64,000 nt of DNA, from assembly GCA_040767085.1 (NCBI GenBank), contig JAXGPF010000012.1, forward strand, positions 128,001-192,000, in the 5' to 3' direction. Position numbers and translations under genes: made by a program. Below are positions 1 to 33,877 of the stretch, in pieces. The notes below the pieces were generated by a model, which ran no database searches, was not told the origin of the DNA, and saw only the letters and a program-made list of their open reading frames with translations. Within the stretch, counting starts at the first letter, position 1, and every line of letters starts with the position of its first letter. Origin of the DNA: Kiritimatiellia bacterium (GTDB lineage: Bacteria > Verrucomicrobiota > Kiritimatiellia > JAAZAB01).

Positions 1-323
1 TGACGCCGGCGGGCGAATTCGCCGGCTATGCCTGGGTGCGCTGGAAAGATGTCAACACCGCCACCGGCAATTTCGGCATCTGCGTCCGGCCGGATTACCA
101 GGGTAGCGGCGCCGGCCGCGCCCTGATGGAGCGGCTGTTCGACATGGTGCGGGAAGCCGGTCCGCCGCGCGTCCGGCTGACGGTTCAAAAGGCCAACGCC
201 CGGGCCGTGGCGCTCTATCAGAAGCTGGGATTCCGGCTTGTGGAGGAACGCCAGCGCCATGCCATACCAGCGCTGGGGCTGCCGGCTGAGCCGGAGTACG
301 TCATGGAGCGCGCCAGCCGGTGA
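1..323 (+). CDS. GNAT family N-acetyltransferase (5' end outside window)
   Basis: Frame is open from the window start. Acetyl-CoA motif VRPDYQGSGAGRALM and N..A..LYQKLGF. Confidence 0.85.
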   Translation, partial: TPAGEFAGYAWVRWKDVNTATGNFGICVRPDYQGSGAGRALMERLFDMVREAGPPRVRLTVQKANARAVALYQKLGFRLVEERQRHAIPALGLPAEPEYVMERASR

Positions 324-411
324 TGGCTTTTGCCTTGCCCGCGGCGTTCTTCCGGTGTTACATTGTCCGTCAGCCGGGCGAGGGTGCCGGCCAAAACCTG
401 GCGGAGGCGGG

Positions 412-2022
412 ATGCGCAACCAAATTGAAGAAAATGCCTTGTTTTTAGGCCTGGATGCCAGCACCCAGAGTTTGAAACTGCTGTTGATCAACCGGCGGTT
501 GGAACCCGTGGCGGACGCCGCGGTTAACTTCGACGAGTCCCTGCCGGAATTCCAAACCGAGCATGGCGCGCACCAGCACGCGGATGGGCTCACCGTCACG
601 GCCCCGCCGCTGATGTGGGCGGCGGCGCTGGAACTGGCCCTGGATAAATTGCGGCGGGCGGGAGCGCCATTGGACCGCGTGGCCGCCCTGTCGGGTTCCG
701 GCCAGCAGCATGGCAGCGTCTGGCTGCGCCGGGGCGCCGGCGCGGTTTTGAATAATCTTGATCCTGCGCGGCCTTTGCGCGGACAAGTGGCGGAGATTTT
801 CGCCCTGACGGAGTCGCCCATCTGGATGGACGCCAGCACCGCCGCCCAATGCGCCGCGCTGGAGCGCGCACTGGGCGGACCCCAGGCGCTGGCGGACTTG
901 ACGGGATCGCGCGCTTATGCGCGTTTCACCGGCAACCAGATTGCCAAAATTCATGCCTTCAACCGCGCGGCGTACGAGGCTGCGGAACGGATTGCGCTGG
1001 TAAGTTCGTTCATGGCTTCCCTGCTGATTGGCGGATATGCGCCGATCGATTTCAGCGATGGCTCGGGAATGAACCTGCTGGATATCCGCGCCCGGCGCTG
1101 GGCGCCCGCGGCGCTGGCGGCCTGCGGCGATGCGCGCCTGGCGGAGATGCTGGGCGTGCCGGCGCCCGCGCATGCGCCGGCCGGCGTTTTGCATCCTTAT
1201 TTCGCGCAACGCTTCGGTTTCCGGCCGGATTGCCTTGTGATTAATTTTTCCGGCGACAATCCCTGCAGCCTCGCCGGCTTGCGCGTGCAGCAGCCCGGCG
1301 CCGTCGCCCTCAGCCTGGGCACCAGCGATACCTTGTTCGGTTCCACCGTCCGGCCGGCGCCCTCCGGCGCGGAAGGGCATGTGTTCGTCAGCCCGGTGGA
1401 TCCCGGCGCCTGGATGGTCATGCTGGTGCGCAAAAACGGTTCGCTCATGCGCGAGCATGTCCGGGACTTTTGCGCCGGCCGCTCCTGGGAGAAATTTAAC
1501 GCCTGCCTGCAAACCACCCCGCCCGGCAACCTGGGCCGGCTGGGATTTTATCACCTGTCCCCGGAAATTACCCCGCCTGCCGATCGTACGGGTGTTTTCC
1601 GGTTCGATGCGCAGGATCATCCTGTGCCGGCGTTGCCGCCCGCGGCGGATTGCCGGGGTGTGGTGGAAAGCCAGTTTTTGTGCTTGCGGGCGCACGCCGC
1701 CGCCATCGGATTGACGCCCGCCAGCCTGCTGGTCACCGGGGGGGCATCTGTCAATCGCCCGCTCGTGCAGGTCGCCGCCGATGTGTTCGGGACGCCCGTG
1801 CTGGCCGGCGCCCAGCCGGAGTCCGCGGCGCTGGGCGCCGCTTACCGCGCATTGCACGGCTGGCTGTGCCGGCAGCGCGGCGCATTTTTATCGTTTGACG
1901 AGGCCGTGCGCGGCGCGCCGGAATTTCAGGTCGTGGCGCGCCCGGATCCGGCGGCCGGCGCGGTTTACCGGGATTTGTTGCCGCGGTATATCAAGTTGGA
2001 AAAAAGTTTGTTCTCAACCTGA
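412..2022 (+). CDS. xylB: Xylulokinase, FGGY family, eukaryote-like (XYLB/XKS1-type)
   Basis: Motifs LGLDASTQSLK, SGSGQQHGSVW, SPIWMD, TGSRAYARFTGNQI, DGSGMNL, GDNP, SLGTSDT, KNGSL. Start placed at ATG 412 after GGAGG. Confidence 0.85.
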   Translation: MRNQIEENALFLGLDASTQSLKLLLINRRLEPVADAAVNFDESLPEFQTEHGAHQHADGLTVTAPPLMWAAALELALDKLRRAGAPLDRVAALSGSGQQHGSVWLRRGAGAVLNNLDPARPLRGQVAEIFALTESPIWMDASTAAQCAALERALGGPQALADLTGSRAYARFTGNQIAKIHAFNRAAYEAAERIALVSSFMASLLIGGYAPIDFSDGSGMNLLDIRARRWAPAALAACGDARLAEMLGVPAPAHAPAGVLHPYFAQRFGFRPDCLVINFSGDNPCSLAGLRVQQPGAVALSLGTSDTLFGSTVRPAPSGAEGHVFVSPVDPGAWMVMLVRKNGSLMREHVRDFCAGRSWEKFNACLQTTPPGNLGRLGFYHLSPEITPPADRTGVFRFDAQDHPVPALPPAADCRGVVESQFLCLRAHAAAIGLTPASLLVTGGASVNRPLVQVAADVFGTPVLAGAQPESAALGAAYRALHGWLCRQRGAFLSFDEAVRGAPEFQVVARPDPAAGAVYRDLLPRYIKLEKSLFST

Positions 2023-2031
2023 CAAGGATTG

Positions 2032-2367
2032 TTTACCACGGATGTCACGGGTAGCACGGATATGAGAGCTTCATATCGTCCATGTTATTAGTGTCATCAG
2101 TGGTTAAATCATCTGAATGGCAGAAAAAATTTACCACGGATGTCACGGGTAGCATGGATATGAAAGATTTATATCATCCGTGTTATTGGTGTTATCAGTG
2201 GTTAAATCATCTGAATGGCAGAAAAAATTTACCACGGATGTCACGGGTAGCACGGATATGAAAGATTTATATCATCCGTGTTATTGGTGTTATCCGTGGT
2301 TAAATCATCTGAATGGCAGAAAAATTTATTACGGATGTCACGGGTAGCACGGATATGAAAGATTTAT
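2032..2367. repeat. Tandem array of 97-98 bp palindromic units (3 full copies plus the left arm of a 4th)
   Basis: Units start at 2032, 2130, 2228 and 2325. Consensus tttaccacggatgtcacgggtagcacggatatgaaagatttatatcatccgtgttattggtgttatc(a/c)gtggttaaatcatctgaatggcagaaaaaa. Confidence 0.95.
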
Positions 2368-2726
2368 TACACGAAACGTTGAGTGAGCACATTATCGGCG
2401 CAGCTATGACTGTATTGAATGAATTAAAGCCAGGGCTGGATGAAAAGCTCTATGAAAAAACTCTGGTCATAGAATTGTTGGAACTTGGACATTCGGTCAA
2501 TCAACAGAAGGTTTTCACGGTGGAGTATAAGGGGCGTGAAATTGGCAGGCTGATTCCCGACTTGATTGTTGACGACCTTGTCATCGCCGATACGAAAGTC
2601 GTGTCAGCGTTCAACGAAACACACTGGGCGCAAATGATAGGTTACTTGGCGTTGACGGGAATGCGGCTAGCCTTGCTGCTGAACTTTAAATACGCTAAAC
2701 TGCAGTGGAAGAGGGTGGTGAGATAA
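2355..2726 (+). CDS. GxxExxY protein (PD-(D/E)XK nuclease-like family)
   Basis: GLDEKLY is the GxxExxY motif; also PDLIVDDLVIADTK, AQMIGYL, LLLNF. ATG 2355 (MKDLLHETL) is preferred over 2313, which lies within the repeat. Confidence 0.92.
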   Translation: MKDLLHETLSEHIIGAAMTVLNELKPGLDEKLYEKTLVIELLELGHSVNQQKVFTVEYKGREIGRLIPDLIVDDLVIADTKVVSAFNETHWAQMIGYLALTGMRLALLLNFKYAKLQWKRVVR

Positions 2727-2762
2727 TACAGCTATAGCGAGAATATGTTCAGGCTTTTTATG

Positions 2763-2862
2763 TCATCCGTGTTATCGGCGTCATCCGTGGTTAAAATATC
2801 TGAATAGCACCTTATAAAGAATATTTATATCATCCGTGTTATTAGTGTCATCCGTGGTTAAA
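2763..2862. repeat. Two right-arm copies of the palindromic unit downstream of the GxxExxY gene
   Basis: tcatccgtgttatcggcgtcatccgtggttaaa (2763-2795) and atttatatcatccgtgttattagtgtcatccgtggttaaa (2823-2862) match the right half of the 98 bp unit. Confidence 0.92.
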
Positions 2863-2917
2863 TCATCCGCCGGTTTTGCGTGGCGGAAGGAAATGGCGGA
2901 AAACAGACAGGGAAAAC

Positions 2918-3841
2918 ATGCAAATCGAAAAAATCAGCTTCAATGGCTGGCGTAATTGTATCCGGCTGCGCAATGCGGACATGGAACTGGTGATTACCAC
3001 CGATGTCGGGCCGCGCGTCATCCGCTGCGGCTTCATCGGCCAGCCTAACCTCTTCGCGGAAATTGCCGGCCAGCAGGGCGGCGCCGGCGAGCCGGAATGG
3101 AAAATCCGCGGCGGCCATCGCCTGTGGATCGCGCCGGAAGACAAGACTATTTCTTACGAACTGGACAATGTCCCGGTGTCCTGGCGGACGGTGGATGGCG
3201 CCGTGCTGCTCGACCAGCCCCCGGGGCCGGCCAGTAAAATCAGCAAGCATCTGGCGATCCGGTTGGACGATCGGCGGAACCAGGCGCGCGTCCGGCATAT
3301 CCTGCGCAACCGCGGGGACGCCCCGTGCCGGGCGGCGCCCTGGGCTTTGACCGTCATGCCGCCGGGCGCCCGGTTGATTGTTCCGTTGCCCCCTAAGGAA
3401 ACGCATGGCCGGGACAACCGCTTCGAGCCCAACCAGATCTGGAGCATCTGGCCCTGCACCGACCTGGCGGATGGCCGCTGGCAATTCGGTTCGCGCTACC
3501 TGTTCTTCCAGCAGCGGACGGACCGTGATGCCGGCAAGCTCGGCATGTCGCTGCGCGAAGGCTGGGTGGCCGGCCAGTTGCCGGGCGGCGTCTTTGTCAA
3601 GCGTTTCGACTGGCTGCCCGGCGCGGTTTATCCGGATGGCAATGTCAATTTTGAAACCTTCGCCAACCGCGAGATTCTGGAAATTGAAACCCTGGGGCCG
3701 CTGGTGGAATTGGCGCCGGGCGCCGAAGTCGTCCATGAGGAGACCTGGGAACTGCTGACGCCGCTGCCGCCATTGCAGACGGAGAAGGACGTGACCCGGC
3801 ATTTGCGGCCGTTGGTGGCGCAGTCCGCCACGAACGCTTAA
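2918..3841 (+). CDS. Conserved hypothetical protein, likely galactose-mutarotase-like supersandwich (DUF4380-like)
   Basis: GW.N...L.N...ELV.T.DVGPRVI, GGHRLWIAPE, LEIETLGPL..L.PG....H.E.W pattern. Confidence 0.6.
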   Translation: MQIEKISFNGWRNCIRLRNADMELVITTDVGPRVIRCGFIGQPNLFAEIAGQQGGAGEPEWKIRGGHRLWIAPEDKTISYELDNVPVSWRTVDGAVLLDQPPGPASKISKHLAIRLDDRRNQARVRHILRNRGDAPCRAAPWALTVMPPGARLIVPLPPKETHGRDNRFEPNQIWSIWPCTDLADGRWQFGSRYLFFQQRTDRDAGKLGMSLREGWVAGQLPGGVFVKRFDWLPGAVYPDGNVNFETFANREILEIETLGPLVELAPGAEVVHEETWELLTPLPPLQTEKDVTRHLRPLVAQSATNA

Positions 3842-3862
3842 CTTGCCGTTGAAAGGAACTGC

Positions 3863-4642
3863 ATGCCTGCCCGGATTTTAATTTGCAATGATGACGGAAT
3901 TTACGCTCCCGGCATCCAGGCGCTGTACGAGGCGGTCCGCGACCTGGGCGAGGTGACCGTGGTGGCCCCGGAAACCGAGCAAAGCGCCGTCGGCCACGCC
4001 ATTACCATCGCCAATCCGATCAAACTCCGGCCCGTTACCCGCAATGGCGGATTGCAGGGGTATGCCGTTGGCGGCACCCCGGCCGACTGCGTCAAGCTGG
4101 CGGTCAGCGAGTTGATGCCGGCCCGGCCGGACCTGGTGCTCAGCGGCATCAACCTGGGTCCGAATGTCGGCATCAGCGTTATCTATTCCGGGACAGTGTC
4201 GGGGGCGACGGAAGGCGCCATTCTCGGCATTCCCAGCATCGCGATTTCACTGGCCTCTTTTCAAAATCCCATTTGGGAGACCGCGGCCCGGGTGGCCCGG
4301 CAGATGGCGCGGCGCGTGCTGGAGCATGGGCTGCCGCCGGATACGCTGCTGAATGTTAATGTCCCCAACCAGCCGCTGGAGCAGATTCGGGGCTTCCGTG
4401 TAGCGCGCATGGGGCGTTCGCGCTTTGCGGAGGTGTTTCACCGCCGCGCCAATCCGCGGGGTGACATTTATTATTGGCTGGACGGCGAATTGGAAATGCT
4501 GGGTGATTTCCAGGGTACCGATGTGCAGGCCGTCGCGGAAAATTACGTGGCCTTGACGCCCATCTGGTTTGATTTGACCCGGACGGAGGCCCTGGACGGC
4601 CTGCGCCAATGGCATCTGCCCTGGCCCCCGCCCGCGGTCTGA
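3863..4642 (+). CDS. surE: 5'/3'-nucleotidase SurE
   Basis: ILICNDDGIYAPG, APETEQSAVGH, GTPADCV, SGINLGPN, YSGTVSGATEG. Confidence 0.97.
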   Translation: MPARILICNDDGIYAPGIQALYEAVRDLGEVTVVAPETEQSAVGHAITIANPIKLRPVTRNGGLQGYAVGGTPADCVKLAVSELMPARPDLVLSGINLGPNVGISVIYSGTVSGATEGAILGIPSIAISLASFQNPIWETAARVARQMARRVLEHGLPPDTLLNVNVPNQPLEQIRGFRVARMGRSRFAEVFHRRANPRGDIYYWLDGELEMLGDFQGTDVQAVAENYVALTPIWFDLTRTEALDGLRQWHLPWPPPAV

Positions 4643-7618: not shown

Positions 7619-8179
7619 TTACCATGAAACACCGGTGATGTCACGCTGAACTCGCCGGCGGCGGGCCTGGATGTAACGGCCGGCCAGCAGGCAAACGCAG
7701 AGGCTCGCTAACACCAGCGCCGGCCAGCGCGCCAGCCAGGGCGTCCGCCACCAGTTCACGCCGTTGAAGCGGTAATCCGAGAGCGGGAAGAAAACCGGCG
7801 GCAAACCGTCCATGCGTCAGCATATCCGTGACAATATGCAGCGGCCAGGCCAGCATGGCCAGCGCCAGCGGGCGATGCCAGCGCTGCAGCCAGAACGCAC
7901 AAGCCGGCGATCAAAACGCCAGTGGGTCAGGTTATACAGCGTGAAAATATACGGCGGGACGGCATGCCAGCCCATGTGTCCATGCCGGATGACATGGTGG
8001 GCCAGGTGCAGGCCGATGAAGCCAGGTCCGGGAAAATGCCGAAAAACAAGGCTGCGCCGAAAGTCCAGTCAATCATTCGCGGCCGGCCGTCCCGGCCGGG
8101 ATTGGCCGCGCCGGCCGCCGGCGAGCCTTGTGCGGCTGCACAGGGTTGCCCCCATCAAAGCATGTGTGAGTATGTCCAT
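7619..8179 (-). pseudogene. Membrane-bound metal-dependent hydrolase (YdjM-like), multiply frameshifted
   Basis: Fragments MDILTHALMG, FGIFPDL, YNLTH, LHIVTDMLTH and FPLSDYRFNGVNWW occur in changing frames. Confidence 0.65.
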
Positions 8180-8205
8180 GATTTATCCTGCCGCTCGGGC
8201 CCGCT

Positions 8206-9722
8206 TCATTCGCTCCGCCGGCCGCCATAGACGCGCAGGGCGTTGCCGCGCAGGATCTGGACCAGAGCGGCATCCGGCTGCGCGAACCGAGCGCAACGCC
8301 CAGTTCGCAGCGCGGGTCGAACCAGTCGACATCGGTGCCGAAAATGATTCTCTCCGCGCCGATGGCGCCGGCAAAGGCGTCCACCATGCCGTTGTGAAAA
8401 TAGTCGCCGGCCAGGTCCACGTGCACGTTGGGGAAGTCGCGGCACACCTGGACCGTCGCGGCGAAGGCCGACGGCCGGCCGCCGGCATGCCCCAGCACGA
8501 AGGGCGCGCCTTGCAGCCGGGGCAGGTGTTTACGGAAACGGTCCGGGTGCCCCTTGAATTGTTCCGGATTGTAGTCGGAGATTTCCCAGCTATGGGTCAT
8601 GATGGTTTTGCCGGACGCGGCGGACAGGTCGAAAATCCGGGCGTAGGCATCGTCATCCGCCGGCGCCTTGTGGGTTACCGGGTGAATCTTGATGCCGGCG
8701 CATGCCGGGTCGGCCAGGGATGCGCGCACGCGTTCGAAATGCGCCGCATCGCCGCGGGGATGGAATATTTCCAGGTAGCGAAACCGGTGCGGCGCATGCC
8801 GGCGCAGGCGGGCGGTGTAATCCCGGCAGGTGATATGGGGATCAAACAAGGCCTCGCCGGGGATGAGATACAATTGCTCGAAAGCGATGGCATCCATGCG
8901 CTCAATCCAATCCGCGGGCGTGAAATTCACGTCCGGCGTCGGCATGTTATATACATCCGGCGCACCGGGCTGGAGGTTGTGCGCATGGGCGTCAATGATG
9001 AAGGGCGGCGGCGCCTGGAATTCAATCGCGGACGGATGCGTTTCCGGCAGCCCAAGCAGCCGGCGCAGGTTGTTGCCCGCAATGGCGCATTTGGTCTGCC
9101 AGTCGAATTCGCCCATGATGACCGGCGCCATGGCGGCGTCAGCGGAAAACAGGGGCAGATGCGAACCGTACAGCAATTTGCCGCCTAGCCCCATGGCGAT
9201 CAATTCTTCGTGGCCGCGCCAATTGCAGAAATTATAGGTGCATAGATAAACATTAGGACAGGCGCGCAGAATTTGTTTTACGGCCGTGTAATGGTAAATC
9301 AGTTTGCGGGGGCCGGACTCTATGATGATCTTGAGGGACGGGCGCGCCTGGGCCAGGCTTTGGATTGCGGCGAAATCCAGGTCGGTATGCAGGATCGCCA
9401 GGGGCATGCCGGCCTGCGCCATGCGGTCAAAAAGCGCGCCGCAGGTCTCCGGCCGGAAGGCGCGCGGTGCCAGGCGCAGCAGCCGGACGCCATCCGCGTC
9501 CCGCAGGCGGGGGAGGCTGGCGGCAAGTTGCGGGTCAGCCGGGGCTGCCTTGGCAAAATCGGTCTGAATGGGTGCGGCCTGTGTCGGAAAAGCGGCGGGC
9601 TCCGCCGGCCAGACCGACGCATCCAGCCAGGGCAGGGCATTTTTGACTTTTTGATAGGACTGGCGGAGCGCGGCGAGGCGGGCCGGAATATCCGCGCCGG
9701 CGGTTTCGGTATTGGATTGCAT
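8206..9722 (-). CDS. Amidohydrolase_2 family protein with two tandem domains; one frameshift near 8280
   Basis: LLYGSHLP...IAGNNLRRLL, then IIDAHAH, GIKIHP, LGHAGG, IIFGTD. The expected terminal ILRGNALRVY is in another frame ending at 8206. Confidence 0.8.
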
Positions 9723-9790
9723 GCGGGAAGGCCCTTTCGTTGAAAGAGGGTTCACACGGAGTGGAGAGAATCCAGAATAAAGAAATTTAT

Positions 9791-9896
9791 CACACAAAGG
9801 CGCGAAGCCACGAAGTAAGAATAAACGAGAAAACATGACTGTGTTATTCCGTGATATTTAAACCGTTGCTCCTTTGTGGCTTTGCCCCTTTTTGTG
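9791..9896. repeat. Intergenic imperfect inverted repeat built from ~8-mer subrepeats
   Basis: cacaaag-gcgcgaag-ccacgaag ... ctttgtgg-ctttgccc-ctttttgtg. Confidence 0.6.
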
Positions 9897-9953
9897 TTTC
9901 ACATAACCTTTCGCTCCTGCCACGCAAGGTGGCAGGGGGCGGCTTTCAAAATT
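9884..9953. repeat. Dispersed ~70 bp hairpin repeat, copy 1 (copy 2 at 34841-34910)
   Basis: 41 of the first 50 nt identical to copy 2 by eye. Stem cctgccac-gcaag-gtggcagg. Confidence 0.8.
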
Positions 9954-11382
9954 AACTCATAAGAAAACATGCCAAGCCCTGCAAATGCGCCAGTTTTTGC
10001 ACCCGCGCGCTATGGCGCCCGGGGAGCGCGATCAGGTGGTGCGGTCCGCCCGCCAGGCTGTAGCGGTTGAGGAAGGCCCCGGCCGGCTCATCGAGCTGCA
10101 CCATCCAGTGGGGAATATCCAATCCCGGCAAGGGCTCAATATCGGCGACTTGCGTTTCATAGGTCACGTACTGCAGGACGTTCCCCGGGCCGGCAGTCAG
10201 GGCGGTCAGCGTCACCGGGCCGGGTTCCAGCGTGAACCACATGCCGGCGTAAGGCTGGATGCCGGGCGCCCAGAAATCTTTTTTCACCAGCCGGATTTTG
10301 CGGTCGCGGCGCGCCAGGGCGGGATTGCATTCCTGCATATGGGTCATCAGCAGGCGGTTGCGCCGGTAATCAATGGTGTAGATTTCGGTGAAATTCGCCG
10401 CGCCGGCCAGCGTCCGCAGCAGCGCCATCTGCGCGGCGCGCAGCACATCGCCTTCGCCGGCGTAGCCCAGCCCTTCGGCGATCAGTTTATTGATGCCGGT
10501 GAACGGCAGCGTTCCGATGCCGGGCTGGTCAAGCAAATCCAGGAAATTCATCGTGAAGGCGTCCAGGCGATGATCGGCGACCACCCGGCGCAAGGCGGCT
10601 TCCAGCCGGGCGGAAAGGCGGTGGATCGGCGGGATGACTTCGGGGGCAATTTCAAAGCGATCATGGTCGCGGGCGATCATCCGGTCAATCTCCGGTTCGG
10701 GAACGGCATTTTTCACGGCGATAAAGTCCGGGATGGACAGCGGCACAACCTGGAAGCCCAGAATTTTTTCCAACGCCGCGGCATCATACTGAAAATCATC
10801 CATCCCGGCAAACGGGCGACCCAGCAGCCCGACGCGCCTGATGCGCCCGTGTTGGCAGGCGCGGGCAGCCTGCAGCCATTCCGCCAGCCGCGCCAGCGCC
10901 GCCTGGTCGCGATAATGGCCGGACTCCATCCCGAAGATTTTGCCGTCGCGCAGGAGCACGCTGGTCAGGTCCTGGGTGCCCTGGGTGACGTGGTTCATCA
11001 GGAGATCGTCAAAATCGTAGGATGCGGCGATGGTTTCCGCTTCCTGGGTATTCCAGATGATCAGCGGCAGGCTGGTACGCCGCAGAATGGGCGCGATCAC
11101 GCCGCTGCAGGCGTATGATAGCGGAATCAGCAGGATGGCATCGGCCTGGTTTTTCTCCGCGGCGGCGACTTGCGCCTCCGCCTGGTCTGCTGTGAAGCAC
11201 AAATCGGCGGATACGCAGGCGATGCCGGCGTGTTCCTGGATGGCGGAGCAGAACCGGCCGAGTTGCGCGCGCAGCCGATCCATGTAGCCCGGAAATTTCC
11301 GGCTGTAAAGTTCCAGCGTGAATCCGATAACCGCCGCTTTGGGCGGGAGCGCGGGGTTGAGAGTTGACGGTGTGGTGTTCAT
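9952..11382 (-). CDS. L-arabinose/L-fucose isomerase family protein
   Basis: GYAGEGD, NFTEIY, THMQECNP, GGPHH resemble the AraA-type metal ligand motifs. Confidence 0.8.
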   Translation of the reverse strand: MNTTPSTLNPALPPKAAVIGFTLELYSRKFPGYMDRLRAQLGRFCSAIQEHAGIACVSADLCFTADQAEAQVAAAEKNQADAILLIPLSYACSGVIAPILRRTSLPLIIWNTQEAETIAASYDFDDLLMNHVTQGTQDLTSVLLRDGKIFGMESGHYRDQAALARLAEWLQAARACQHGRIRRVGLLGRPFAGMDDFQYDAAALEKILGFQVVPLSIPDFIAVKNAVPEPEIDRMIARDHDRFEIAPEVIPPIHRLSARLEAALRRVVADHRLDAFTMNFLDLLDQPGIGTLPFTGINKLIAEGLGYAGEGDVLRAAQMALLRTLAGAANFTEIYTIDYRRNRLLMTHMQECNPALARRDRKIRLVKKDFWAPGIQPYAGMWFTLEPGPVTLTALTAGPGNVLQYVTYETQVADIEPLPGLDIPHWMVQLDEPAGAFLNRYSLAGGPHHLIALPGRHSARVQKLAHLQGLACFLMS

Positions 11383-15021: not shown

Positions 15022-16218
15022 GTGAAAATCATTTTCAAATATTTGCATGGATTAATTGCAGCTGTCCTGGCCGCGCCGCTGCTTGACGCGGGCGCGCAGC
15101 CGTCCGGGGCAATGCGCCTGATGCCCGATTTCCCGGAAATGCTCTGGCTGGCCGCCGGCGATTTGAATGGCGATGGCCGCATGGACCTGGCGGCGGTGGA
15201 ACGCCGGACCCGGCGCGCGCGGGAAATGGATAAAACAGTTTACCACATTGATCATATATTAAACTTGTATGACAATCCCGGCGGCGAGTTTATCCATCAG
15301 CCGGCAATATCCCTGGATTTGCCGGTTGCGCCTTCCGGTTTACTGATTGGCGATTATGATCGCGACGGCAAAAGCGATGTGGCGGTCGGATTGCGGCCGC
15401 GCCGCGAGCTTTTGATTTATCCCGGTGCGGCGGGGTTGACCAATGCGCAGGTTTTGCATTATGGCAATGATTCAGGCGGAGCGTCGCTGGCCGCCGGCCG
15501 TATTTCGCCCGGAGGCGCGGATTTTATGACCGGCGCCGCCTGGCGCAAGTGGCATGACGGCGCGCGGCTCGATGCCGGCTATTTCAGCGGTCCGGAAGAA
15601 AATGACAACCTTATCTCAACGCTGGCCGATTTGAATTGGGATGGATGGGACGATGTGATTTTTACCACCCGCAATCACTGCGTCCGCATATACTACGGGC
15701 CGATTATGCGCATGGGCATCCTGGGGGTAAATGACGCGTTTGGAGTAGTAACCCTGAAGCCGCCGCTGCATACGAATGCGCCCCAGCCGGTTTTACGGCA
15801 GGTTATAACCGCCGATGTCAATGGCGACGGCCAGCTTGATTTGCTGGCGGGCGCGCCCGGGCGCACGCTGGTTTGGCTGCAAAACAATCCGATTGGATTT
15901 ACGGAAAATGCCGAGCCCGCCCTGGTGATGGAAGGTTTGGTGGCTTTACTGGCGGTGGATTTGTCCAGGCAGGGGCATTTGGATGTGGTTTTCCGGTCGG
16001 AGGATGCCCGGGAACTGACGGTATGGCGGCAGGATCAAGACGCACCGTTAACGTCCGGCGGCGCGGCGTCCGGCGCAAAGTATGCGATGCCGCGGGCCAT
16101 CAACGCGGTAGCGGCAGGTGATTTCAATGGCGATGGCGCGCCGGAACTGCTGGCGGGGCTGGCCGGCGGCGGCCTGGCTGTTATGGATTTGCGGCGGAAA
16201 GCCGCGCCTGGAGAATAA
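15022..16218 (+). CDS. Secreted FG-GAP/VCBS repeat protein
   Basis: GDLNGDGRMDL, GDYDRDGKSDV, ADLNWDGWDDV, ADVNGDGQLDL, GDFNGDGAPEL. Confidence 0.9.
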   Translation: MKIIFKYLHGLIAAVLAAPLLDAGAQPSGAMRLMPDFPEMLWLAAGDLNGDGRMDLAAVERRTRRAREMDKTVYHIDHILNLYDNPGGEFIHQPAISLDLPVAPSGLLIGDYDRDGKSDVAVGLRPRRELLIYPGAAGLTNAQVLHYGNDSGGASLAAGRISPGGADFMTGAAWRKWHDGARLDAGYFSGPEENDNLISTLADLNWDGWDDVIFTTRNHCVRIYYGPIMRMGILGVNDAFGVVTLKPPLHTNAPQPVLRQVITADVNGDGQLDLLAGAPGRTLVWLQNNPIGFTENAEPALVMEGLVALLAVDLSRQGHLDVVFRSEDARELTVWRQDQDAPLTSGGAASGAKYAMPRAINAVAAGDFNGDGAPELLAGLAGGGLAVMDLRRKAAPGE

Positions 16219-16222
16219 AAAC

Positions 16223-17650
16223 ATGCCGAAAGAAGATATTGCGGGACTGGTGCGCCATTGGCGGTATACGCCGGATGACAGATATCTTGCCAACCCGCAT
16301 CGCGGTTGTTGCACTTTTCAACGTTTTAACGGCGATCCGCTGTATGACGGCGCTGGCTGGACGGAAGCCGGACCGGTAAACGGCGCCTTGTCGCCGGCGG
16401 CCGGGGCCACGGGGGTGCCCGGGTATTTTGCTCCGGCGGTAACTCCGGGTTTTTTGCCGACAACCGTGGCGTATTGCCGCTGGTTTTGGGAAAAATTGGA
16501 ACCAAGCGAAGGTGTGTATGACTTTTCCATGATTGACAAAGCCCTGGATGCCTGCCGGCAGCGTGGTCAGACGTTGGCGTTGCGCCTGATGCCGTTCGGG
16601 GCGGCCTACGTCGGCCAGGCCGGACTCCCGGACTGGTATATAAAAAAATATCCAACGCAAAAATGGCACGCTACGGACATGTTGGCGCCCGTTTACGATG
16701 CCCCCGGATATTTTGAGCGGTTCGGCGGATTGATCGCCGAATTTGCGCGGCGCTATGACGCGCATCCGCTGCTGGAGACGGTGGACGTGGCGTTTCTCGG
16801 TCCGTGGGGGGAAGGCGACGGCGTTTGTTCGCAGGCGCGCGTAGACCAGTTCGCCGAACTTTACCGGCGCGCATTCCAACATACTCCGCGCCTGGCATTA
16901 ATCGGAGGAGGAGGCGGCGCCGCCGGCCAGGGCGACCAGTTGCGCGCCGGCATTGCGCATGGCAGCGGCTGGCGCGCGGATTGCTTCGGCGACCTGCGGC
17001 AGAAGCATAACCATCCCGCCCCGCTGCATATGATTTGGAATCACATGTACAATTTATACCCCAAAAGGATTTGCGAGGTCGGCGCGCAGGACGCCTGGAA
17101 GACGGCGCCGGTCCATTTCGAGGTCTGCGAAGTGCCCATGGATTGGTATCGGCAGGAGTTTGACATTGATTTCATCATCGAGCAGGGATGGAAATATCAT
17201 ACCACTTATTTCATGCCGAAATCATCGCCGCTGCCGGAAGCATGGATGGACAAGCTGGCTGCTTTTTGCAACAAGCTGGGATATCGCTTTGTCTTCCGCC
17301 AGGCCACTTTGAGCCGGCGCACGGCGCGCGGCGGGAAATTTGTGTTCCGCGCGTGGATTGAAAATACCGGCGCGGCGCCGCTGTATCGGCGATACGATTT
17401 CGCCTTGCGTTTGCAGCAAGGCGATGCGCAGGAAGTGATCGTCTTGGAAGATGTGAATCCCTGCCAATGGTTGCCGGGCGACATCTGGCTGGATCGTGAA
17501 ATTGACTTGCCACGGTCTTTTCAATCCGGGTATATTGAACTGTCGGCCGGTCTGCTGGACAGGCGCACGCATCAGCCTGGTGTTAATTTCGCCGTCAGGG
17601 AAAGATTTGCGGACCGTTGGATGCTGCTGGGCGGAGTAGAGGTTGTCTGA
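16223..17650 (+). CDS. DUF4832-domain putative glycoside hydrolase
   Basis: NPHRG, W..LEP.EG.YDFS.ID, GPWGEG, C-terminal LGYRF and ENTG.APLY. Confidence 0.75.
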   Translation: MPKEDIAGLVRHWRYTPDDRYLANPHRGCCTFQRFNGDPLYDGAGWTEAGPVNGALSPAAGATGVPGYFAPAVTPGFLPTTVAYCRWFWEKLEPSEGVYDFSMIDKALDACRQRGQTLALRLMPFGAAYVGQAGLPDWYIKKYPTQKWHATDMLAPVYDAPGYFERFGGLIAEFARRYDAHPLLETVDVAFLGPWGEGDGVCSQARVDQFAELYRRAFQHTPRLALIGGGGGAAGQGDQLRAGIAHGSGWRADCFGDLRQKHNHPAPLHMIWNHMYNLYPKRICEVGAQDAWKTAPVHFEVCEVPMDWYRQEFDIDFIIEQGWKYHTTYFMPKSSPLPEAWMDKLAAFCNKLGYRFVFRQATLSRRTARGGKFVFRAWIENTGAAPLYRRYDFALRLQQGDAQEVIVLEDVNPCQWLPGDIWLDREIDLPRSFQSGYIELSAGLLDRRTHQPGVNFAVRERFADRWMLLGGVEVV

Positions 17651-33204: not shown

Positions 33205-33272
33205 TGAAGGATCCGCAGATTACGCAGATTAACCACGGTGCGCGCGGGGATGACGGATAATCCGCGGATTAC
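33193..33272. repeat. Short imperfect tandem repeat (49 bp period) between convergent genes
   Basis: gcgcggggatga at 33193 and 33242; atccgc(a/g)gattac at 33211 and 33260. Confidence 0.65.
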
Positions 33273-33877
33273 TGAGGGTAATAGCGGCGCGGGCCGCACG
33301 GTCCGCCGCAGGGATAATACCCGCCGTGGAACAACTTGCCCTTCCGCAGGCCCGCCGCGCCGCGGAGGTCGTCGAGGCCGGCGGCGTTAAACTGCCGGCA
33401 GGCGGCCAGCAGGACCATGGCGCAGGCGGCGGCGTCTTCTTCGGCGTCATGATGCCGGAAAACAATGCCCAGCGACCGCGCAATGTGGTTGAGGGCATAG
33501 CTGCCATGCCGCGGCCATGCGATGCGGGACAGCACCAGCGTGCAGTAGTAATCCGTCTCGGGATAGGGCGCGCCGCATTGGTCGAGCGCATGGCGGAGGC
33601 AGCTTACATCGAAGGCGGCGTTGTGCGCGGCCAGCGGCCCGCGGATTTGCGGCCAAAGCCGCGGCCAGTACTCGGCAAAGGTGGGGGCGCCGGCGACCTC
33701 CCGCGGGGTGATCCCGTGAATGGAAATATTGATCGGATCGAAACGCAGCGGTTCGGGCCGGATCAACTGGCTCATCCGTCCGACTACCCGGCCGTTTTCA
33801 ACCATGGCCAGGCCGACGGCGCAGATGGACGACCGGTCGCCGTTGGCGGTCTCGAAATCTATGGCGGTAAATCTCAT
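33269..33877 (-). CDS. DEDDh 3'-5' exonuclease (DNA polymerase III epsilon-like)
   Basis: AIDFETAN, IHGIT, AHNAAFD, YCT, HHDAEEDA. Confidence 0.92.
   Translation of the reverse strand: MRFTAIDFETANGDRSSICAVGLAMVENGRVVGRMSQLIRPEPLRFDPINISIHGITPREVAGAPTFAEYWPRLWPQIRGPLAAHNAAFDVSCLRHALDQCGAPYPETDYYCTLVLSRIAWPRHGSYALNHIARSLGIVFRHHDAEEDAAACAMVLLAACRQFNAAGLDDLRGAAGLRKGKLFHGGYYPCGGPCGPRRYYPQ

Follow-up and report, generated by a model that had tools for sequence, protein, structure and literature searches.

What kind of element lies between two sugar-metabolism genes of a Kiritimatiellia bacterium (GTDB lineage Verrucomicrobiota; Kiritimatiellia; JAAZAB01), where a gene of the GxxExxY family is enclosed in a long hairpin and is preceded by a row of gene-less copies of the same hairpin? 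The locus was analysed in a stretch of 64,000 nucleotides (nt) of contig JAXGPF010000012.1 (assembly GCA_040767085.1, positions 128,001 to 192,000 of the forward strand). This whole stretch is called the window, and positions given without a contig are counted from its first letter. Our preferred answer is that the island at 2032-2862 is a hairpin cassette with arms made of short repeated words, of the build known from the intervening sequences (IVSs) of 23S ribosomal RNA (rRNA), promoter-less and probably selfish; we give this reading a probability of about one half. It fits the linkage of gene and arms across bacteria, the nuclease fold kept under selection, the constraint on the words, the gene-less copies that look like deletion derivatives, the dispersed gene-less arms (satellites) and the patchy presence of the island.

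Layout of the island and its nuclease gene

The island has a GC content of 0.415, compared with 0.662 and 0.640 in the flanking genes and 0.61 in the genome, and its first arm begins at 2032, 9 nt beyond the TGA stop (2020-2022) of a kinase frame. The preliminary description of the locus had placed an AT-rich island at this distance from the kinase stop, and both the coordinates and the composition agree with it. The left arm, TTTACCACGGATGTCACGGGTAGCACGGAT, is 30 nt long and consists of three 7-nt words (CACGGAT, CACGGGT and CACGGAT) at 9-nt spacing, with 2-nt spacers between them. Left and right arms are 77-80% complementary over 30 nt. Tandem Repeats Finder reported a single array at 2032-2367 with a period of 98, 3.4 copies, 94% matches and no indels. 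In a repeat search, three 100-nt units were found at 91-92% identity to the reference copy, together with four left arms spaced by 98, 98 and 97 nt and five right arms. The three hairpin units of 97-98 bp with 9-mer periodicity that had been noticed before were confirmed by these searches and by folding, as were the fourth left arm at the ATG of the gene and the two right arms 3' of the gene. The features of the island, followed by its two neighbours, are:

2032..2129, + strand: gene-less hairpin unit 1, the most diverged, with left arm 2032-2061, loop, right arm 2078-2107 and tail
2130..2227, + strand: gene-less hairpin unit 2, with left arm 2130-2159 and right arm 2176-2205; the loop retains ATGAAAGATTTAT
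2228..2324, + strand: gene-less hairpin unit 3, with left arm 2228-2257 and right arm 2274-2303; loop as in unit 2
2325..2354, + strand: fourth left arm of three words, 96% to the reference copy, ending one base before the ATG of the gene
2355..2726, + strand: GxxExxY gene of PD-(D/E)XK nuclease fold, 123 amino acids (aa); PF13366 at 7.8e-32, TIGR04256 at 7.7e-35
2765..2794, + strand: right arm 4, the partner arm of the gene, 80% complementary to the left arms
2795..2831, + strand: tail and probable remnant of a further unit, with the left arm lost and a loop-like TTATAAAGAATATTTATATC kept, as compared by eye with the loops of units 2 and 3
2832..2861, + strand: right arm 5, outermost; the congeners G003 and G001 retain nothing but its last 18 nt at this site
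238..2022, + strand: upstream neighbour, xylulokinase-like sugar kinase of the FGGY family; PF02782 and PF00370, TIGR01312 at 148.6 bits, below the cut-off of 380
2918..3841, + strand: downstream neighbour, DUF4380 / TTE1925-like mutarotase-like gene; PF14315, NF052227 at 252 bits, below the cut-off of 550

The island is thus placed between two genes that are co-directional with the GxxExxY gene. The label xylB, which had been given to the upstream neighbour, was replaced by xylulokinase-like FGGY kinase, because the score of the XylB model stays below its equivalog cut-off. An ATG at 2313 upstream of the gene start opens a 137-aa frame that translates the left arm (window 2313-2354); since the starts of homologues lie close to the ATG at 2355, genes of this kind may be annotated automatically with starts too far upstream, inside their arms. 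Two other kinds of repeat-bearing locus were considered and rejected. A CRISPR array would have unique spacers between identical repeats; here the repeated unit is the full 98 nt, at 91-92% identity to the reference copy, and variable spacers are absent. An integron cassette, with one attC site 3' of its open reading frame (ORF) and an integrase and attI close by, does not match the arms on both sides of the ORF, and no integrase-sized frame adjoins the island (the wider window was not searched for integrases).

The preliminary description had also named an assembly stutter, with the tandem units as an artefact of assembling a repeat, as a possible source of the array, and we consider this barely credible. 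Contigs of two other studies were compared, one of an anaerobic digester (X4) and one of a landfill (X5). Contigs of both carry the kinase gene through its stop to 2061 at no less than 99% identity, and a single X4 contig extends over 2304-2927 and takes in the last left arm, the gene with its two right arms and the junction to the host, again at 99% identity or more. The outer junctions and the arm-gene-arm core are therefore independently reproduced. In addition, the three units differ mutually at several positions, and arm arrays are present at other cassettes in this genome and in relatives. What would speak for a stutter is that short-read contigs break in repeats: the contigs of all four public runs leave parts of the array uncovered, so the number of 98-nt units, which is beyond the reach of short-read contigs, is that of this one assembly; the edges of the array are secured by independent assemblies. 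RNA-library run X18 gave one 128-nt contig on 2032-2153 together with kinase contigs, and RNA-library run X19 gave a kinase contig alone; as DNA is possible in RNA libraries and the contigs have no transcript ends, they are no proof of transcription.

One X5 contig joins a left arm (to 2066) through two extra letters to the right arm at 2765. The joint may stem from an assembly path induced by the repeats or from a gene-less allele in a related strain; with 30 letters on its shorter side, it was not used as evidence. A 19-nt word from the end of the kinase gene was found at 8 loci in metagenome contigs, all of them chance matches: 7 had no blastn match to window positions 1000-4000, and one matched in just 22 nt around the word.

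The 123-aa ORF scored 119.8 bits with the GxxExxY model TIGR04256 (cut-off 35) and 110.5 bits with the PDDEXK_3 model PF13366 (cut-off 22). Residues G27, E30, Y33, D69 and K81 are invariant in 24 sequences, the ORF and 23 homologues, and position 79 is acidic, with D here (D79-T-K81) and E in most homologues, which gives a D...(D/E)-x-K signature. The AlphaFold (AF2) model has a mean pLDDT of 95.3. Foldseek matched Cas4 SSO0001, lambda exonuclease and the Holliday-junction resolvase Hjc, all with probability 1.00 and TM scores of 0.47-0.57. By sequence, no relative was found in the PDB, the top match being a hyaluronate lyase at E 0.21. Compared with an 85%-identical copy in the related genome G008, the ratio of nonsynonymous to synonymous substitution (dN/dS) was 0.055, with synonymous sites near saturation (proportion of synonymous differences, pS, 0.645). 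The gene is intact and under strong purifying selection.

The GxxExxY family is very large: at E up to 0.001 it comprises 40,854 cluster representatives, with clusters formed at 50% identity. Many of the top-scoring members are 250-295 aa long and carry two GxxExxY domains in tandem, as checked on three library proteins. These frequent tandem fusions are indirect evidence that the single-domain protein may work as a dimer. The three library proteins, P0001, P0002 and P0008, are two-domain fusions of 250-293 aa; judged by eye, P0001 and P0002 have no (D/E)-x-K residues in their second domain, a pattern that a dimer with a single active site would show.

A small Cas4-like nuclease could also be part of a defence or toxin module, with the repeats as a regulatory or guide-like array. 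The Foldseek matches to Cas4 point in this direction, and so does a weak PADLOC match to an Argonaute-associated Cas4-like nuclease (E 0.0014, 16 bits). We nevertheless hold such a module to be very improbable, as the units are near-identical and without variable spacers, the island has no partner gene, the neighbours are sugar-metabolism genes and no PHROG match was obtained. With this one protein as query, there was no match among 50,697 phage records, and 4 of 72,556 plasmid records were matched.

Cognate arms around GxxExxY genes

This genome contains four GxxExxY genes, one of them frameshifted, and all four were found within inverted word-repeat arms, with words that are all different. 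The three cassettes other than the island are:

Contig 2: GxxExxY cassette with CACGAAG arms of 33 nt, 100% complementary; five left and four right arms
Contig 11: GxxExxY cassette with CACGAAG/CACAAAG arms; one left and three right arms
Contig 22: GxxExxY cassette with CGCAGAT arms; the gene is frameshifted

The pairing of an enzyme with its own palindrome, which had been proposed from the island, proved to be general. For each of 106 loci we computed an arm score, the best inverted match between the 200 nt on either side of the gene, and used windows displaced by 600 nt as the control. The loci comprised 29 from 41 related genomes and 77 of 79 from a species collection, from which two with short flanks were dropped; the search that gave the 79 loci was seeded with a 7-sequence alignment of one clade, so that CACGAAG- and CACAGAG-type words are over-represented among them. 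The cognate score had a median of 39, compared with a median of 17 and a maximum of 24 for the displaced windows, and 90 of the 106 loci lay above the highest displaced control. When 55 loci from relatives were added, inverted word-repeat arms were present at 135 of 161 GxxExxY loci. A general lack of arms among homologues, which the preliminary description took as an outcome that would speak against it, did not occur. According to their record titles, the armed loci belong to more than a dozen phylum-level groups, including Desulfobacterota, Planctomycetota, Gammaproteobacteria, Verrucomicrobiota, Acidobacteriota, Chloroflexota, Bdellovibrionota, Hydrogenedentota, Nitrospinota, Chlamydiota, Bacteroidota, Gemmatimonadota and Myxococcota, among others. 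Two of the loci found belong to Flavobacterium.

The periodicity of the arms was also general. The best self-lag of the left arm was 8 or 9 nt in 66 of 85 arms, and the lags of control segments scattered. Mismatches between left and right arms amounted to 3.7% at periodic word positions compared with 18.7% at non-periodic spacer positions; the constraint is carried by the words and not by a continuous helix. To relate words to proteins, 13 word classes over 109 typed loci were mapped on a FastTree phylogeny of 157 proteins. Changes of word class on the tree numbered 37, and 200 shuffles of the labels gave 69-83; the CACGGAT class, with 10 members, requires 4 changes and the CGCAGAT class, with 7, requires 2. 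The arms thus co-vary with the protein phylogeny, a check that had been proposed with the locus. Words change often, and each change runs through all copies of both arms. The small number of changes relative to the shuffles indicates that arms and gene travel together over long times; mere linkage would give the same tree result, so co-evolution of protein and site is not proven by it.

The position of the cassettes relative to their neighbours was examined at loci with usable flanks, with crude gene calls (longest open frames). Both neighbours were co-oriented with the gene at 59 of 93 loci and both were opposed at 5, the remainder being mixed (16 and 13). Around the island, no sigma-70-like site was found on the + strand of 1800-3100. 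Given this placement between co-oriented genes and the missing sigma-70-like site, the cassette looks promoter-less and dependent on read-through. Arms often lie close to the gene: among the 63 armed loci of the species collection, the best right arm begins within 15 nt of the stop in 37, and in 24 no more than 15 nt separate the end of the best left arm from the first aligned codon. The purine-rich words might also serve as ribosome-binding sites, an idea considered by eye.

Gene-less units, satellites and the history of the site

The loops of units 2 and 3 consist of ATGAAAGATTTAT followed by ATCATCC, which are the gene's first 13 nt and the bases that precede the right arm, and the gene's own 3' flank reads ...TTTTTATGTCATCC. 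A deletion between two TTTAT stretches would yield an empty unit, save one substitution. Gene-less hairpins of the CACGGAT type in G008 and in another relative, G017, keep GATATG at the end of the left arm. Because the gene's first 13 nt are found in the loops, we read the empty units as deletion derivatives, probably internally deleted copies that were multiplied in tandem. Arrays of arms exist elsewhere as well, with five left arms at the contig-2 cassette, five before a four-helix-bundle gene and long runs in G020.

The dispersal of gene-less arms was measured by counting identical word pairs 1-4 nt apart in 41 genomes, with a reversed-pattern control that gave 0-2 per genome; partial genes at contig ends were excluded from word typing. 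Pairs of CGCAGAT numbered 334 in G004 (2.6 Mb), 41 in G013, 37 in this genome, 34 in G039 and 29 in G001. For CACGGAT the counts were 239 in G004, 103 in G025, 46 in G008, 35 in G020, 29 in G029, 21 in G017 and 1 in this genome, and for CACGAAG they were 69 in this genome, 61 in G030 and 21 in G013. The 69 CACGAAG pairs of this genome form 24 clusters, of which 23 have a single orientation. Genomes with a typed cognate-armed gene hold more pairs than those without (medians 29 vs 0.5, 14 vs 2 and 14 vs 0). A genome-wide count of arms had been called for when the island was first described as a candidate mobile system or one that generates repetitive extragenic palindromic (REP) sequences. The outcome was divided: gene-less arms are REP-like in relatives (239 and 334 pairs compared with 0-2 in controls), and the CACGGAT type of the island is undispersed in its own genome.

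Several single observations concern such gene-less arms. G004, which belongs to the same genus, has two GxxExxY genes, with arms of the CGCAGAT and CACGGAA types, beside its 334 and 239 word pairs. CGCAGAT words form 18 clusters in this genome, in which the cognate gene (contig 22) is frameshifted. Within the window, a solo, decayed CGCAGAT-type arm directly follows a TGA TGA stop at 33205-33275, and a gene-less word-repeat hairpin with arms of CACAAAG / CGCGAAG / CACGAAG words lies at 9791-9900, between minus-strand frames 8073-9836 and 9952-11382, with an ATG and a short frame in its loop. On contig 2, eight word-arm clusters were located within 8.9-22.7 kb (seven CACGAAG, two CGCAGAT; two ~200 nt apart), and outward-facing CACGAAG-type arms at 15884-16914 surround a gene for a 298-aa RlmI/RlmK-like rRNA methyltransferase.

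To follow the history of the site, the flanks of the cassettes were compared among relatives. In G008, G023, G007, G020 and G029, CACGGAT-type cassettes sit tightly between other, unrelated gene pairs. It is from these different neighbourhoods in other genera, and from nothing else, that we infer movement of the cassette. Within the genus the island is not fixed, since two of four congeners are without it. A search for an empty site downstream of the kinase gene, suggested in the preliminary description, led to these two, G003 and G001: the kinase and the mutarotase-like genes are adjacent there and the island is absent, but the site is not clean, as 18 nt that match the end of the outermost right arm remain. 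This stub is fused in frame to the kinase gene six codons before the usual stop and supplies a new stop. A single deletion of ~836 bp with 3-nt microhomology would explain the site in G003 and G001, and an insertion scenario would not. In G002 a contig begins inside a right arm at this site, nothing in G004 matches the region, and the kinase C-terminus of G016 differs again from both forms. Arms can therefore donate stops to neighbouring genes (the kinase end in G003 and G001), as they can create false upstream starts (the frame at 2313).

The other cassettes of this genome have similar histories among congeners. All that is left of the contig-2 cassette in G003 and G002 is an arm stub of 10 nt. 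In G001 the gene has gone and the cassette is a wreck in which the first codons survive (L130; G001 contig 74, 15034-15376). L130 consists of a left arm with the first codons, ~250 nt of other repeat-like sequence and a decayed right arm. The contig-11 cassette is present in G002 and G003, and in its place there are ~12 nt in G001 and ~200 nt in G004.

A proposed selfish cassette, its alternatives and known systems

A mechanism that would join these observations can be outlined. The GxxExxY gene would be expressed by read-through from the kinase gene. The nuclease, as a dimer, would recognise the word arrays, either as duplex or as an extruded hairpin or cruciform, and the break that it makes would allow copying of the cassette, or of gene-less units derived from it, into another intergenic position; in this the cassette would be like an autonomous element accompanied by miniatures. 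The units upstream of the gene, three in number, and the unit stub behind it would be internal deletions of the gene-bearing unit, and slippage or unequal recombination would have multiplied the deleted units in tandem. Pairing of the arms in the transcript would give a long stem open to cutting by RNase III, as is the stem of the rRNA IVSs, and such cutting would make an insertion inside an operon tolerable.

A number of observations weigh against a selfish cassette of this kind. Cargo of the four-helix-bundle family, genomes rich in arms in which the gene was not found and comparisons that showed no gain all weaken it. All three congener comparisons are best read as loss or decay and not as gain; no pristine empty site and no recent insertion was met in them. 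No target-site duplication was found either, as there is no direct repeat at the junctions and the congener sites retain arm stubs. The association of genes with satellites is partly trivial, because the cassettes add their own pairs and the genomes are related. The undispersed CACGGAT-type arms of this genome are its own array and two solo arms on contig 9. Arms are held by G017 (21 word pairs) and G027 (9), in which no GxxExxY gene was detected, and G004 and G025 are rich in CACGGAT with no cognate-armed gene typed; these four genomes are 89-93% complete. Both TIGR02436 four-helix-bundle genes of this genome lie within inverted word-repeat arms, one of them with five tandem left arms, and a TIGR04258 gene on contig 23 lies likewise in word-repeat arms. 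As this cargo is not a nuclease, the arms need no GxxExxY nuclease in cis. Among armed loci of the 106, transition mismatches between arms gave 97 sense-strand G:U pairs and 93 on the antisense strand, and word-like columns gave 39 and 43. Given the near absence of the protein from phages and plasmids, no vehicle for transfer between genomes is evident. The nuclease activity of the protein is predicted, and its action on the arms is a hypothesis.

An alternative is that the hairpin came first and that genes of the GxxExxY and four-helix-bundle families are lodgers in its loop. Word-repeat hairpins would then be an independent REP-like class, spread by another enzyme or by slippage and kept as structures at messenger RNA (mRNA) ends or as terminator-like structures, and the job of the nuclease would lie elsewhere, in repair, in defence or in homing into loops. 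We regard this as unlikely. Two unrelated small gene families occur in the same kind of arms, and the loop cargo is varied, from short unrelated sequences to a 200-nt inner palindrome. The arm-rich genomes G017 and G027 agree with it, as does G004, which has 239 CACGGAT pairs and yet carries its second gene in CACGGAA-type arms, and as does the single orientation of 23 of the 24 CACGAAG clusters here. What it does not explain are the ATG remnants and the co-inheritance of words and protein. Cognate arms were found at 135 of 161 genes and the word class follows the protein tree. Moreover, the start codon abuts the arm, and gene-less copies here, in G008 and in G017 keep the ATG or the first codons by the left arm, which fits deletion derivatives better than empty targets, since an ORF is unlikely to have landed in frame behind a pre-existing ATG.

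Further kinds of cargo were seen in this genome. On contig 23, frames of the TIGR04258 four-helix-bundle suffix domain lie in ACACGGAC-type arms at 347375-348829, and ParE-like and antitoxin-like frames (labelled by eye) lie between two sets of arms. An element of ~230 nt, with CACGGAG-type arms around an inner long palindrome, is present in three copies (contig 3, 181064-181290; contig 6, 140888-141126; contig 22, 279926-280161), the flanks of which are alike outside the arms as well. The copies on contigs 3 and 6 carry the central loop of ~31 nt in opposite orientations (flip/flop).

Folding brings in another possibility, namely that the arms form an RNA device and are not mobile at all. They would pair in the operon transcript, RNase III would cut the stems, and the island would be a domesticated processing or attenuation module that governs how stable the kinase, nuclease and mutarotase-like messages are or how well they are translated. 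As RNA on the + strand, the units fold at -31.6 to -40.9 kcal/mol (z -4.2 to -6.7), and 0 of 200 shuffles were as good: unit 1 at -31.6 (z -4.16), unit 2 at -32.9 (z -5.07) and unit 3, taken as 2228-2325, at -40.9 (z -6.71). The - strand is less stable, with -16.6 for unit 2 and -28.6 for unit 3, and the 861-nt region as a whole has a z of -8.2. Folded as DNA, the two strands of unit 3 are about equal (-19.4 for + and -18.2 for -). There are four sense-strand G:U pairs per unit at this locus. The co-orientation with neighbours (both in the direction of the gene at 59 loci, both against it at 5) and the + strand without a promoter-like site agree with such a device, an RNase III gene is encoded in this genome, and cutting of an IVS stem by RNase III is described in passages of a study on Coxiella (PMC4990558).

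All the same, we think an RNA device improbable. The first 30 loci (29 distinct, one scored twice) gave 30 sense-strand G:U pairs and 19 antisense, but the wider set has no sense-strand excess, and selection for an RNA stem across the family is therefore not visible in these alignments. The earlier variant in which the protein processes the array transcript is not borne out by mismatches so evenly divided between the strands. Spacers are five times less complementary than words, and a pure stem model leaves the repetition of words within an arm without explanation. The island is dispensable in two congeners that retain the same gene pair. In Rfam, searched with 1900-3000 at E up to 10, no family reached its threshold, the matches being sub-threshold microRNA-type hairpins with a best score of 24 bits compared with gathering thresholds of at least 44. 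An RNA device thus explains the orientation bias and has the IVS as precedent, and lacks a strand signature. It is compatible with a selfish cassette, because an element that is mobile as DNA may also need an RNA stem to be harmless in an operon or an rRNA.

A wider proposal, which we make tentatively and consider doubtful, is that a very large and unrecognised class of bacterial mobile elements owes its mobility to GxxExxY proteins, a dimer of which would cut the duplex or cruciform of the word arms and copy the cassette and its miniatures into intergenic sites. If true, this would explain the origin of the 23S rRNA intervening sequences and a major share of the REP-like intergenic hairpins in more than a dozen phyla, and it would give a function to a family of about 40,000 sequence clusters. 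Independently of this proposal, the cognate arms at 135 of 161 loci give the GxxExxY family a candidate substrate, and through its anatomy the family is linked to an old question, the origin of the rRNA IVSs. The anatomy also suggests that many intergenic hairpins now called terminators or REP-like repeats are remains of cassettes. The locus is convenient for further work, with an intact gene under selection, four left and five right arms, gene-less derivatives adjoining and congeners that have lost the island.

A literature search found no paper on the pairing of GxxExxY genes with arms and no assigned function for the family, and the matching passages of PMC8934634 and PMC10053308 do not treat the flanks of GxxExxY genes. 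The island had been called a candidate undescribed system. This holds for the pairing as far as the search went, and it does not hold for the anatomy, which is published, in passages of PMC4990558, for the Coxiella IVS with its S23p ORF. We conclude that this type of cassette is widespread and barely described and that the island is a well-preserved example of it.

Transposons with terminal inverted repeats (TIRs) have inverted ends around a gene, and their deleted copies, the miniature inverted-repeat transposable elements (MITEs), keep the ends; in foldback elements the ends are made of short tandem repeats. The island resembles both, since its inverted ends enclose a gene, its deleted copies keep the ends and the ends are built of short repeats. 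It differs in having no DDE or other known transposase, the sole ORF being GxxExxY, and no promoter-like site. I-Ssp6803I is a homing endonuclease of the PD-(D/E)XK fold that is encoded inside the element that it propagates. The island likewise has a small PD-(D/E)XK protein inside the element that it would propagate, and a gene-less form of the site exists. Unlike I-Ssp6803I, it is not placed in an intron or intein, its gene-less units resemble deletion derivatives and not naive targets, and cleavage by GxxExxY proteins is predicted.

With the REPIN-RAYT systems (PMC3116915, PMC3337134), which consist of REP doublets and a REP-associated tyrosine transposase, the cassette shares a small gene flanked by the repeat that it is thought to serve, gene-less palindromes between genes in tens to hundreds, more of them in genomes with the cognate gene, and a chromosomal, largely vertical life with near absence from phages and plasmids. 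Unlike those systems, it has a PD-(D/E)XK fold and no Y1 HUH transposase, its arms are arrays of short words and not one REP hairpin, the gene lies inside the hairpin, there are several word families and genes per genome, and some arm-rich genomes have no detected gene. At this locus a further difference is that the CACGGAT-type arms are undispersed; dispersal was met for other word families (CACGAAG; and in G004).

The closest published anatomy is that of the Coxiella IVS. The passages of PMC4990558 that concern it describe a 28-bp stem of terminal inverted repeats around an ORF, three tandem GACAGAT heptamers before the ATG, in a number that varies with the strain, cutting in the stem by RNase III, and an old idea that the ORF might serve mobility. 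In contrast to the IVSs, the island lies between protein-coding genes, and the 23S gene of its own genome, with 2953 nt for 2925 model positions, has no large insert. The ORF of the island has the PD-(D/E)XK nuclease fold and is not S23p (PF05635, TIGR02436), its words are 9 nt apart with free 2-nt spacers, and gene-less copies stand in a tandem array. IVSs are excised by RNase III, and by analogy the island may be too. In the IVSs of Coxiella burnetii and Leptospira, as far as the cited passages go, an S23p (PF05635) ORF of ~120 aa lies in an inverted-repeat stem of ~28-30 bp, with tandem 7-nt words in the 5' arm right before the ATG, and they, like the island, are regarded as selfish. The four-helix-bundle family is, according to passages of PMC10053308, encoded in 23S rRNA IVSs and related to Avd of diversity-generating retroelements, and the four-helix-bundle genes of this genome sit in word-repeat arms.

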